64,000 nucleotides of DNA from a bacterium (GTDB lineage: Bacteria; CAYTYR01; UBA6262; DAOVJB01). Under the pieces are notes generated by a model that saw only the letters and a list, made by a program, of their open reading frames with translations, did not search any database and had not been told where the DNA came from. Shown piece after piece: positions 56,132 through 58,782 of the stretch. The stretch is taken from positions 6,276 through 70,275 of the forward strand of contig JBDRDD010000007.1 of NCBI GenBank assembly GCA_043821115.1. Direction: 5' to 3'. Every line of letters starts with the position of its first letter. The stretch's first letter is position 1. The position numbers and the translations under genes are program-made.

Positions 56132-57532
56132 ATGAAGGTGAGGATGGGTGTAAAATTCACGGTTGGCTTGCTTTCGGTGTGGATAATAGCGGGCGGTTCA
56201 ATGAGCTATTTTATCTACACCAGTAACAGGAATGCACTCCAGGAGACTATCACCGTCAGGCTCCAGGAGCATGCCGCCCACCTGATGGGCAAGATAGACA
56301 GGTATATTTACGAGCGCTATGTTGATATAAAGATGCTCTCGGAGGATCCTGTAGTCACTTCCAATACATCAACCCCAAAACAGATAAAACGGCGTCTGCT
56401 TCAGTATAGAGACACCCATAATGCATATTCGTCCCTGTATTTTCTTGACGCAAACAGGATAAAGATTGCGGATACAGAGGATGAGAATATAGGCAAAAAA
56501 CATGAGCTTGCAAAATACTGGGAAGAGGTGGAGAAAAACGGTGTGAGCATCGCTTCGGATATTTACATATCGAGCTCAAGCGGAAACATTGATGTTCATT
56601 TTGCGGCAGCCGTAAATGATGCCCGGGGTAAATTGCGCGGTGTTGTCGTTTCCAAGATGCCCATTGAGCAGATATACGAGATAGCCCGGGAGAGCATAGA
56701 TGTCTACGGGCAAAACGAGAAAGATGCCATAGAGATTGATCTTGTGGATGACAAGGGGCTGCTGCTTTTTGCAACACAGAATAAAGCAGGCATTCTTAAG
56801 GAAAATTATTCCTATTTGGAGTCAGTGCAGAAGTCTCTAAAGGGAGTAAAGGGTGGTATTTCCATTCATTTTGACCCTGTATCGAAGGAAGATGATTTTT
56901 ACGCGTTTGTCAGGGAAAAGGGATTTGCGGATTTCAGGGGGAACAACTGGACCCTTCTTGTGCATCTGCCGGTAAAAGTGGCATTTGCTCCGGCGGTGGA
57001 GTTGGGCAGGAAGATGCTTTTTGTTTTGCTCTGGATATCGATTGTAGGTATTATAATAGTCATTAGCATCATACGCTTTATAACAAATCCAATTGTGCTA
57101 TTGCGCGATGCCATAAGAAGGGTAGCCGCGGGTAATTTCAATACGTTTGTTGAGATTAAATCAAATGACGAGATCGGTGATCTTGCTGATTCGTTTAACG
57201 GTATGGTTGAGCAGATCCAGGCTGCACAGGAATTGATCCAGGCCCAGAACCAGGAACTTGCGGCAAGTAACCAGGAGTTGATTTCCGGTAACGAAGAACT
57301 GCAGGCCACCACCGAAGAACTCAGAGAGGCGAACGAGCAGCTCAGGGATTTCAGGCAAGGCCTGGAAGAGCAGATCAGGGAAAGAATGAAAGAACTCCAA
57401 AATGCAAAGACGGAACTTGAGGCAAAAGTGCAGCAGCTGGAGCGCTTTAACAGGATAGCTGTAGGCAGGGAGCTGAGGATGAGGGAGCTTAAGAAAAAAT
57501 TTGATGAATTCAAAATGAAACACAGAGGGTAG
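56132..57532 (+). CDS. Sensor protein: periplasmic Cache-like domain, TM, HAMP, heptad coiled coil; no output domain
   Basis: HAMP (EIGDLADSFNGMVEQ); NQELAASNQELISGNEELQATTEEL heptads; C-terminal tail FNRIAVGRELRMRELKKKFDEF. Confidence 0.85.
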   Translation: MKVRMGVKFTVGLLSVWIIAGGSMSYFIYTSNRNALQETITVRLQEHAAHLMGKIDRYIYERYVDIKMLSEDPVVTSNTSTPKQIKRRLLQYRDTHNAYSSLYFLDANRIKIADTEDENIGKKHELAKYWEEVEKNGVSIASDIYISSSSGNIDVHFAAAVNDARGKLRGVVVSKMPIEQIYEIARESIDVYGQNEKDAIEIDLVDDKGLLLFATQNKAGILKENYSYLESVQKSLKGVKGGISIHFDPVSKEDDFYAFVREKGFADFRGNNWTLLVHLPVKVAFAPAVELGRKMLFVLLWISIVGIIIVISIIRFITNPIVLLRDAIRRVAAGNFNTFVEIKSNDEIGDLADSFNGMVEQIQAAQELIQAQNQELAASNQELISGNEELQATTEELREANEQLRDFRQGLEEQIRERMKELQNAKTELEAKVQQLERFNRIAVGRELRMRELKKKFDEFKMKHRG

Positions 57533-57534
57533 CT

Positions 57535-58782
57535 ATGAGCGAAGAAATATTTAGAACCATATTTGACAAAGCCGGGGCAGCTATACTCATAACCGATGCC
57601 CTTACAAAATCTATAATCGATTGTAACCTCCAGGCCCAGACACTGACGGGATATGGGAGGGAAAAACTAATAGGCATGAAGCGCCTGGAGCTCTGCAGCA
57701 GGGAAAACGATCACGCCGAGCATGAGAAGATTTACTACAGTGGCCAGACACATAGCTACGAAGATGAGATAAAACTCTCTGACTCGACAAGGCTTCCGGT
57801 ATGGATTAATATAAGTTCCGCCAGTATCTCCGGAAAAGATGTGATAATTGAACTTCTGATAGACATGAGTAAGCAGAAGAATCTCGAAGATGCGCTCTGG
57901 GAAAGCGAACAGAATGCCCGGGACCTGTGGGAGAACGTGGAGGATCTGATACAAAGCGTTCGTCCCGACGGGACTTTCGCGTATGTGAACAAGGCCTGGC
58001 GGCAGAAACTCGGCTATACACCAGACGAAATCACAAAACTAACTCTTTTTGATGTGATACATCCCGACAGCAAGCAGCACTGCAGGGCGATGTTTGATGA
58101 AGTTCTATCCGGCAAAAGCGTAGATAACATCAGTGCTACCTTTGTAACAAAAGAAGGGCAGCAGATCCTGGTAGAGGGCTCTGCAAATTGTCGTTTTGTA
58201 GATGGGAAACCCGTTGCCACCCGTGCTATTTTCCATGACGTTACCAGGCAGAGGAGCATAGAAAAAGAGCTGAGAACCGCCGCAATGCAATGGAAGGATA
58301 CTTTTGACGCCATATCAGACCTGGTATTTGTTCAGGATACAGACCATACGATAAGAAAGGTTAATAAATCCTTTGCAGATGCTATGAAAATGGCTCCGGA
58401 TGAAATTATAGGCAGGAAATGCTACGAGTTGCTCCACAACTCGGAGAAGCCATGGCCCAAATGTCCGTTTGAGATGACCAAGGCAGACTGCAATCCACAC
58501 ACCGAAGAGGTCGATGATCCCTCTATAGGAGTTCCTCTGCTTGTTACCACTTCCCCCATTTTCGATGCGGAAGGGGAGATGATTGGTATAGTGCATATTG
58601 CAAAGGATATCTCGGATATCAAAAAGGCAGAGAATGAACTGCGCTGGAAGATGCATGACCTTGAGGTTTTCCGGAAAGCCTCGGTAGGCCGTGAGATGAA
58701 AATGATTAAGATGAAGAAGAGAATAAACGAGCTTGAAAAAGAGCTCGAAGAAAAGAATACTTCGGACGGGGATTCCCGATGA
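57535..58782 (+). CDS. Cytoplasmic tandem-PAS sensor protein; no output domain
   Basis: Two PAS-like segments; C-terminal tail FRKASVGREMKMIKMKKRINELEKEL; own ATG 2 nt after upstream stop. Confidence 0.85.
   Translation: MSEEIFRTIFDKAGAAILITDALTKSIIDCNLQAQTLTGYGREKLIGMKRLELCSRENDHAEHEKIYYSGQTHSYEDEIKLSDSTRLPVWINISSASISGKDVIIELLIDMSKQKNLEDALWESEQNARDLWENVEDLIQSVRPDGTFAYVNKAWRQKLGYTPDEITKLTLFDVIHPDSKQHCRAMFDEVLSGKSVDNISATFVTKEGQQILVEGSANCRFVDGKPVATRAIFHDVTRQRSIEKELRTAAMQWKDTFDAISDLVFVQDTDHTIRKVNKSFADAMKMAPDEIIGRKCYELLHNSEKPWPKCPFEMTKADCNPHTEEVDDPSIGVPLLVTTSPIFDAEGEMIGIVHIAKDISDIKKAENELRWKMHDLEVFRKASVGREMKMIKMKKRINELEKELEEKNTSDGDSR

Follow-up and report, generated by a model that had tools for sequence, protein, structure and literature searches.

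The stretch of DNA analyzed here (the window) comprises 64,000 nucleotides (nt) of contig JBDRDD010000007.1 from a bacterial genome assembly (GCA_043821115.1) and contains two consecutive sensor genes, the open reading frames (ORFs) ORF1 and ORF2, followed by ORF3, which encodes a large sensor kinase. ORF1 and ORF2 both end in a helix of about 45-55 residues, referred to here as the tail (consensus ELERFNK-x-AVGRELRMIELKKEINEL), the C-terminus of ORF1 reading ...LERFNRIAVGRELRMRELKKKFDEFKMKHRG and that of ORF2 ...LEVFRKASVGREMKMIKMKKRINELEKELEEKNTSDGDSR, and a Pfam scan found no output domain in either protein. A first-pass annotation, prepared from the letters of the window, had pointed to this arrangement, describing two successive sensors devoid of output domains that share a C-terminal motif, lie in different frames, are separated by 2 nt and overlap a kinase of 1080 amino acids (aa) by ATGA. 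The junctions are confirmed in the sequence, the 2 nt between the ORF1 stop and the ORF2 ATG being ct, and purine-rich, Shine-Dalgarno-like stretches precede the starts of ORF1, ORF2 and ORF3 (aggtga, agaggg and ggacgggga, respectively). Judged from sequence, ORF1 and ORF2 are complete stand-alone sensors, encoded by separate genes and lacking an output domain.

A six-frame translation of the window contains the pattern GRE.[KR]M at exactly two places. A family hidden Markov model (HMM), built from a 58-sequence alignment minus the two window rows, matches the ORF2 tail with 59-60 bits (E 3.5e-18) and the ORF1 tail with 52 bits (E 1e-15), and finds no other tail match in the six frames; the next best has E > 6, so the two matches lie far beyond chance. 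Profile and Pfam results together confirm the shared motif and the absence of outputs. The HMM match stops 1 residue (ORF1) and 6 residues (ORF2) ahead of the stop codon. Across the family, the consensus varies as ELERFNK-x-(A/F)-V-(G/D/N)-R-E-L-(R/K)-M-(I/V)-E-L-K-(K/E)-x-I-x-E-L, with ..ELxxKxxELERFNKxAVGRELRMIELKKxINEL as the longer alignment consensus, and R, E, M and K are invariant among 78 full-length tail proteins. The two adjacent lysines in the motif as first described are correct for the window, but they do not hold as a family rule, the position being K-(K/E).

AlphaFold2 (AF2) modeling of ORF2 from a 39-sequence alignment gave three confident PAS domains, with a mean predicted local distance difference test score (pLDDT) of 94.4, and residues 360-414 as one unbroken helix with a pLDDT of about 90-95 up to residue 400. 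Heptad analysis places G-R-E of the tail at positions c-d-e, with the invariant Arg at d. In these respects, the tail resembles the signaling helix (S-helix) described by Anantharaman, Balaji and Aravind in 2006 (PMC1592074), which lies between two signaling domains and has ERT at c-d-e of its central heptad: both form a parallel coiled coil leaving a PAS, HAMP or PocR domain, with a conserved polar Arg at heptad position d. The tail differs in having G-R-E instead of ERT and in its location at the extreme C-terminus, where a stop codon comes next and the next domain is found on another protein. The S-helix signature V-x-ERT-x-EL lies 22 residues ahead of the tail Arg in many family members, and ERT signatures occur upstream in many tail proteins and in ORF3, 14-29 residues off and in heptad steps. 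In ORF1, IRERMKEL stands 29 residues ahead of the tail Arg, one heptad more than in its relatives, and the ORF2 tail contains no ERT. Because S-helix signatures precede the tail in heptad steps, we regard it as an extension of the coiled coil that runs from sensor to effector, with the chain ending there.

A Pfam search at E<=10 with eight tails returned only scattered, sub-threshold coiled-coil matches and no match to HisKA (PF00512), a sequence search of the PDB reached a best E of 0.1, and the NCBIfam matches to full-length ORF1 and ORF2 stop short of the tail core. The motif is nevertheless widespread. A word-indexed search with the two window tails alone yielded 3 proteins, the larger family requiring an exhaustive profile search: with a five-tail profile, 1.84 billion cluster representatives gave 15,227 matches at E<=1e-3, a count that may take in some generic coiled coils, and 1,003 at E<=1e-10. 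A scan of GTDB (one genome per species) with the 58-sequence tail alignment gave at least 600 stretches, 555 of them confirmed. The matches listed include bacteria of the Nitrospirota, Planctomycetota, Bacteroidota, Omnitrophota, Patescibacteria, Desulfobacterota, Acidobacteriota, Chloroflexota and Gammaproteobacteria, and archaea of the Methanosarcinales, Thermoplasmata, Methanobacteriota and DPANN lineages. The database search for the motif and its domain context that the first-pass annotation had suggested therefore uncovered a large family of input-domain proteins spread across phyla.

Genomic context was surveyed in 88 loci selected by the tail, 80 from the genome scan and 8 around ORF2 homologues and one tail match. 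They hold 106 tail matches, chosen by DNA pattern and tblastn and blind to stop codons, and in 105 of these the tail lies 0-36 residues from the stop codon; the exception is a fusion in a metagenome-assembled genome (MAG) of the Methanobacteriota (locus L068). Among database proteins, the tail is terminal in 203 of 226 matches, and within the best 150 profile matches it nearly always ends a few residues short of the C-terminus. The possibility that the motif is simply the start of a domain normally followed by more sequence was thus not borne out. The internal copies inspected in database proteins are followed by a Pro- or acid-rich linker and then by a new module, commonly PocR-PAS-tail. An initial assignment of internal copies as following CheB/CheR domains was ruled out, the architecture being dCache-HAMP-PAS-tail-linker-PocR-PAS-tail.

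These counts bear directly on whether ORF1, ORF2 and ORF3 could be a single kinase gene broken by sequencing or assembly frameshifts, as their adjacency in successive frames would allow. The chain stops at the same point after the same motif in the 105 of 106 independent genomic cases, each of the three ORFs has its own start codon and Shine-Dalgarno-like sequence, ORF2 begins with an ordinary PAS N-terminus and is modeled with confidence over its full length by AF2, and the same split recurs in homologous operons of other MAGs. We consider an artifact of this kind scarcely credible.

The protein content of the family is that of sensors. A Pfam census of the 78 tail proteins counted PAS (51), HAMP (11), receiver (9), dCache (5), GAF (4) and PocR (3) domains, and kinase, cyclase and phosphodiesterase families are absent among the 25 most frequent Pfam families. 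Among 118 homologues of ORF2, the tail is present in 36 PAS-only members and in none of the kinases with a histidine-kinase H-box. Seventeen loci, including L017, have two or more tail genes on one strand, in some cases as direct neighbors (L028, L029, L070), and the two consecutive tail genes of the window therefore represent a recurrent layout. In 50%-identity clustering, ORF1 is its own cluster representative (P0131), and ORF2 is identical to P0004, recorded at NCBI as 'MAG: PAS domain-containing protein [bacterium]'; for ORF1, a search for encoding contigs gave no exact record. ORF1 was also considered as a recent duplicate of the sensor half of ORF3, which was rejected at an identity of just 22% over dCache-HAMP; the similarity between ORF2 and ORF3 is weak and confined to PAS.

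The next gene on the same strand usually starts less than 100 nt from the tail gene, often with a 4-nt overlap, although the two genes can also overlap by tens of nt or stand several hundred nt apart. HATPase_c kinases account for 24 of 73 immediate downstream proteins, and the others include PAS or tail proteins, receivers, FIST, HD-GYP, CheR and solute-binding proteins, and a family of ~200 aa; the outputs encoded downstream of tail genes are kinases with HisKA or HisKA_2 and HD-GYP proteins. A second helix motif that lacks annotation, LN[IL][LM]ED (the LN motif), is present in 23 of these 73 proteins. In kinases of about 320-400 aa that contain LN repeats, HisKA and HATPase_c and no other domain, it is often repeated in tandem at the N-terminus in units of 21 residues (TQRAvLNILEDFaxEKxrxE), and it occurs as a single copy in front of HD-GYP domains. 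Neither the H-box nor the LN motif was found in any of 101 tail ORFs.

The position of LN proteins relative to tail genes is strongly biased. In the tail-selected loci, whose flanks total 283 kb upstream and 429 kb downstream, 62 LN proteins are encoded downstream of a tail gene on the same strand and none on the opposite strand; one further LN protein has no detected upstream tail gene, its locus beginning just upstream and the short tail ORF having fallen below the length cut-off. Among kinases with an H-box, the LN motif is found in 37 of the 61 downstream of a tail gene versus 1 of the 16 elsewhere in the same loci, and the 33 PAS kinases found among the ORF2 homologues include no true LN copy. 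The phospho-acceptor His follows the last LN unit at distances that form classes of 30, 37, 44, 51, 58 and 65 residues, or at 140-165 residues when a PAS domain intervenes. Because the classes are heptad steps, the LN motif belongs to the coiled coil driving the dimerization and histidine phosphotransfer (DHp) domain. In heptad analysis, the tail and the LN unit each show additional conserved hydrophobic residues beyond positions a and d. Divergence of the tail and the LN unit from a single ancestral repeat was examined and rejected (hhalign P 0.19). Searches of the open-access literature turned up no account of either motif, an absence that is no proof, and the two appear to be motif families so far undescribed.

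The reciprocal question was addressed by searching metagenomes with aligned LN double units, which provided 80 loci chosen by LN repeats only, 67 of them informative in having at least 200 nt upstream. A tail-bearing ORF lies just ahead of the LN gene in all 67. The distance from the tail stop to the first LN unit is about 65-130 nt, typically 65-68 nt, and the commonest junction between the two genes is a 4-nt [AG]TGA overlap (50/69). This sample represents one clade with the nearly invariant tail RELERLAELERFQKLTVGRELKMIELKKEIEEL, its upstream sensors varying greatly in length. A tail gene also precedes three more LN kinases, which come from Actinobacteria, Bacillota and another MAG, and the pair of tail gene and LN-repeat kinase was found in MAGs labeled Actinobacteria, Bacillota, Syntrophobacteraceae, Nitrospirae and Aminicenantales. 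An artificial query joining tail and LN unit retrieved, among its top 120 matches, 119 stand-alone LN kinases of 113-331 aa (median 320), in which the median start of the first LN unit is residue 25. The remaining match (P0337) is a low-quality fusion of tail, LN repeats and HisKA whose C-terminus looks frameshifted. Since 119 of 120 are stand-alone, the split between sensor and transmitter is the strongly preferred state.

The terminal position in 105 of 106 matches, the tandem tail genes of 17 loci and the overlaps of 50 of 69 junctions also uphold the initial view of ORF1 and ORF2 as separate, co-translated genes and not fragments. A different reading of the same junctions is that the tail peptide acts in translation, through termination-reinitiation, frameshifting or bypass, setting the sensor:kinase ratio or producing an occasional fusion. 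The conserved core lies about 20-35 residues ahead of the stop codon, most tail genes overlap the next gene, in the -1 frame, by 4 nt, and rare fused ORFs exist, all of which would suit such a role. However, long proteins contain in-frame internal copies followed by linkers and more domains, the amphipathic heptads and confident helix point to a folded element, and gene spacing is variable, including the 2-nt gap between ORF1 and ORF2. ATGA overlaps are ordinary translational coupling, and a visual read of the sequence revealed no slippery site at the window junctions. A co-translational signal is accordingly very improbable in our estimation.

Taken together, the neighborhoods in both directions indicate that the tail very probably marks sensors functionally coupled to a downstream output gene. 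Within the window, that gene would be ORF3. Its LN unit (residues 576-599) scores 28.6-30 bits (E 7e-9) with the LN-unit HMM and is the only confident match in the six-frame translation, the next best reaching 10.8 bits (E 0.011). The LN unit lies between the two PAS domains, with N585 located 14 residues past E571 of the VEERT S-helix signature. ORF2 directly adjoins ORF3 and ORF1 is one gene further up, as in the tail-tail-output loci L028 and L029. Homologous operons (L002, L003, L007/L008) consist of a tail-bearing PAS protein, a dCache-HAMP kinase and two or three receiver genes. The sequence QEATLNI(M/L)ED is common to ORF3 and the kinases of L002, L003 and L007, and the tails of the homologous operons share the window-type variant DLE(V/I)F(Q/R)KA-x-VGRE-x-KM; elsewhere, FY-x-MAVGRE tails precede HD-GYP proteins with DAFLNML-x-D. 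This matching of tail and LN subtypes fits co-evolving partners, as far as comparison of sequences can suggest, and shared descent could also yield it.

The proposal of the first-pass annotation that such sensors feed the downstream kinase is therefore strongly supported as a probable functional link, given the gene neighborhoods in both directions, the subtype matching and the LN motif of ORF3, but partners other than kinases occur: tail genes are also followed by HD-GYP and other proteins, and the immediate neighbor of ORF1 is ORF2. As to how the link would be made, we favor with moderate confidence a tail that packs on the LN helix or stalk of the output protein and passes the signal in trans; the contact, its stoichiometry and the sign of regulation are what we infer. 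This reading is favored because the LN motif is the only element common to all partner types (HisKA, HisKA_2 and HD-GYP), because sensor-less partners offer nothing else to receive a signal, because both motifs conserve hydrophobic residues beyond a two-stranded a/d core, because their invariant charges are complementary (R, E and K of the tail versus N, D/E and E of the LN motif), and because rare fusions join both kinds of module in one chain.

Two other readings of the helix compete with packing on the LN motif. In the first, the tail is a mere homodimerization coiled coil that caps the sensors, much like a J-alpha helix, with the signal taking another route (PAS-PAS heterodimerization, a small-molecule relay or sequestration) and the LN motif serving as a lineage marker. 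The heptad pattern and the single long helix of the AF2 model fit a dimeric coiled coil, the PAS domains of ORF3 could pair with those of ORF2, and many immediate neighbors have no LN motif. Such a cap is nonetheless unlikely: the LN-repeat kinases after tail genes possess only LN repeats, DHp and the catalytic and ATP-binding (CA) domain, and hence no PAS to contact; conservation exceeds the needs of dimerization, with R, E, M and K invariant and near-identical sequence across phyla; and LN proteins are strictly downstream on the same strand, with matching tail and LN subtypes.

The second derives the tail from helix 1 of a DHp domain, with Arg replacing the phospho-acceptor His, and has it pair with the DHp bundle of the partner in the fashion of RetS on GacS. 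Locally, N-x-ELE-x-F...V-S-H-D-L-R of the partner does resemble ELERFNK..V-G-R-E-L-R of the tail, and hhalign pairs tail columns 1-18 with the segment before the H-box (probability 76%, P 2e-5). The similarity ends at the Phe, though, the core aligning to neither HisKA subtype (hhalign P 0.31); the Arg and His positions are offset by one residue, and the tail contains no His. Moreover, HD-GYP partners have the LN motif and no DHp, so it is LN, not DHp, that the partners have in common. We therefore judge descent from DHp to be improbable.

If the tail does pack on the LN motif, the output of each sensor would be its C-terminal helix, which prolongs the coiled coil emerging from the last HAMP or PAS domain. 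A sensor dimer would contribute its tail helices, and an output dimer its LN helix or stalk, to a mixed helical bundle, through which a ligand-induced change in the sensor coiled coil could be relayed in trans to the DHp or catalytic domain, such that two polypeptides would accomplish what the signaling helix does inside one. In the window, the LN site of ORF3 would receive a periplasmic dCache input from ORF1 and cytoplasmic PAS inputs from ORF2; ORF3 would add its own dCache-HAMP-PAS input and phosphorylate two receivers encoded downstream. More broadly, and only tentatively, tail and LN helix may constitute a heterospecific coiled-coil 'plug and socket' used in Bacteria and Archaea to wire sensors to sensor-less kinases and HD-GYP enzymes, a general, multi-input and so far unrecognized architecture. 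Tandem tail genes and tandem LN repeats would then let several inputs converge on one output, and the free-standing modules would comprise PAS, Cache-HAMP, GAF, PocR, receiver and even ammonium-transporter fusions.

Several observations weigh against this interpretation. Just 23 of the 73 immediate neighbors carry the LN motif, the rest including solute-binding, FIST, receiver, CheR and unknown proteins, and the LN protein often lies one to three genes further on, so that adjacency is not universal. For single LN motifs, the background rate among kinases in general comes from small samples only. The LN unit of ORF3 is internal, with a PAS domain between it and the DHp (145 residues), and ORF3 has sensors of its own, a layout unlike the clean case of a sensor-less kinase. 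Finally, because the LN-selected sample is one clade with a near-identical tail, 67 of 67 does not amount to 67 independent events.

Sensors encoded beside the protein they control are familiar from other systems. Stand-alone sensors such as the PAS-only CetB, paired with CetA in Campylobacter, and H-NOX proteins, paired with adjacent kinases, are encoded next to the enzyme or transducer that they control, and these pairs are thought to interact via globular domains or HAMP. To our knowledge, neither is known to combine a shared terminal helix motif with a matching N-terminal helix motif. Likewise, we know of no conserved cross-phylum motif in the J-alpha helices of short LOV proteins and of no tie between them and a specific downstream gene with a matching motif. 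The tail proteins otherwise resemble short LOV/PAS proteins, such as those of Pseudomonas putida (PMC13322254), which are effector-less PAS sensors ending in a dimeric coiled-coil helix. In the split histidine kinases CheA3/CheA4 and Hik36/Hik43 (PMC3591291, PMC7656254), the phosphorylatable and catalytic domains are on separate proteins; they are similar in that a single kinase distributes its activities over two polypeptides, which have to associate, whereas ORF3 and the LN-repeat kinases keep HisKA and HATPase_c together, the break lying between input and transmitter. In the RetS-GacS pair (PMC5992135), a sensor also modulates another kinase in trans through helix-helix contacts; however, RetS is a full hybrid kinase that uses its DHp, while tail proteins lack DHp and CA and would likely contact the LN helix, and RetS-GacS is likewise not known to use a conserved pairing of a terminal with an N-terminal helix. 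Trans-acting sensors are already known in two-component and cyclic di-GMP signaling, and it is the pair of tail and LN motifs that appears to be new.

Thousands of output-less 'PAS domain-containing proteins' and short sensor-less kinases are now annotated as unrelated orphans. If tail and LN helix are a matched docking pair, orphan sensors could be assigned to their enzymes from sequence alone, the transmission of signals through coiled coils would become open to study in a naturally cut helix, and synthetic biology would gain a compact natural heterodimerization module for rewiring sensors and kinases. The kinase of the window would then integrate at least three inputs, namely its own Cache and PAS domains, the periplasmic Cache domain of ORF1 and the three PAS domains of ORF2.

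Table 1. Features of the window and of other loci or proteins, with coordinates in nt of the window or of the locus named. TM, transmembrane segment.
Source	Feature	Coordinates	Strand	Description
Window	Receiver protein	54838-55239	+	Upstream of ORF1; Pfam
Window	TM/CZB zinc-binding-domain protein	55254-55883	+	209 aa; two TM segments; no output domain or tail
Window	ORF1	56132-57532	+	466 aa, frame 2; Pfam dCache_1 and HAMP; order TM, dCache_1, TM, HAMP, N-x-E-L heptad coiled coil, S-helix-like IRERMKEL, tail
Window	ORF1 tail helix	57398..57526	+	Residues about 423-465, ...ELEAKVQQLERFNRIAVGRELRMRELKKKFDEF...; family HMM match
Window	ORF2	57535-58782	+	415 aa, frame 1; cytoplasmic sensor; Pfam three PAS domains, then tail
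Window	ORF2 tail	58612..58776	+	Residues 360-414; conserved core (HMM match) 362-409
Window	ATGA overlap, ORF2 stop / ORF3 start	58779..58782	+	Read from the sequence
Window	ORF3 sensor kinase	58779-62021	+	1080 aa, frame 0; order dCache_1, HAMP, PAS, S-helix (VEERT) and LN motif, PAS, HisKA (aa 718-785), HATPase_c (aa 833-941), degenerate GGDEF-like domain (probable)
Window	ORF3 LN helix motif	60504..60575	+	Residues 576-599, ...SQEATLNIMEDMQEAKDQLEE; LN-unit HMM
Window	Single-domain response regulator	62073-62456	+	Pfam
Window	Single-domain response regulator	62478-62849	+	Pfam
L068	Fusion protein	4432-6381		Tail, acidic linker, PAS, PAS, LN motif, HisKA, HATPase; Methanobacteriota MAG
P0122	Fusion protein			Tail, 40-aa linker, LN, three PAS_3 domains, tail
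L009	~200-aa family gene	6185-6790		
L011	~200-aa family gene	6145-6744		
L012	~200-aa family gene	169-774		
L014	~200-aa family gene	6170-6727		
L034	~200-aa family gene	6146-6754		
L034	~200-aa family gene	7966-8562		
L080	~200-aa family gene	7876-8463		

Around the three genes, the receiver and CZB genes upstream of ORF1 possibly belong to the same operon as ORF1-ORF3, and an ORF of 71 aa that resembles a TPR fragment lies on the same strand between the CZB gene and ORF1 (stretch 55254-56104). The two receivers downstream are likely the phospho-acceptors of ORF3. In the homologous operons, MshE/type II secretion system-type genes are also present in L002 and L008, and PilZ genes in L002.

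Within ORF1, aa about 365-405 (57224-57346), between HAMP and IRERMKEL, form heptad N-x-E-L repeats (QELIQAQNQELAASNQELISGNEELQATTEELREANEQL) that resemble the heptads of chemoreceptor methylation helices; elsewhere, CheR genes follow some tail genes. In the third PAS domain of ORF2 (58303-58617, aa about 257-361), C296, H301, C310 and P311 (C-x4-H-x8-C-P) hardly vary among the 39 aligned sequences, and this set may be a metal or cofactor site of that PAS subtype. The C-terminal GGDEF-like domain of ORF3 (61611-61994, aa 945-1072; Pfam E 2e-6) has no GG[DE]EF motif and is for that reason probably degenerate and non-catalytic; a GGDEF match also ends the homologous kinase of L003.

Among the 78 tail proteins, a few match small Pfam families, namely Bcl-2_3 (5 proteins, best E 6e-10), SymE_toxin (3) and Spore_Cse60 (3), and two match Ammonium_transp (E 5e-117). 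In L132 and L137, a TGA ends the tail ORF (at nt 4057 and 2997, respectively) within ...VGRELR, whereas relatives continue as ...GRELKMIEL, which probably reflects a 1-nt indel or a pseudogene. The tail RELERLAELERFQKLTVGRELKMIELKKEIEEL and the LN-repeat kinase are almost identical across MAGs labeled Actinobacteria, Bacillota, Nitrospirae and Syntrophobacteraceae (L169, L170, L171, L089-L168), which suggests horizontal spread of the two-gene junction or an unusually strong constraint.

The ~200-aa family, which has no Pfam match, is encoded by the gene immediately following a tail gene in several MAGs, among them Patescibacteria (Nealsonbacteria, Saccharibacteria) and a DPANN archaeon. Loci with this family encode an LN-bearing kinase at a greater distance downstream; in L011 and L012, a second tail gene precedes a FIST protein. 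A different kind of neighbor is found in L070 (3507-6188), where an H-NOX (HNOB) protein is encoded after a pair of adjacent tail genes.

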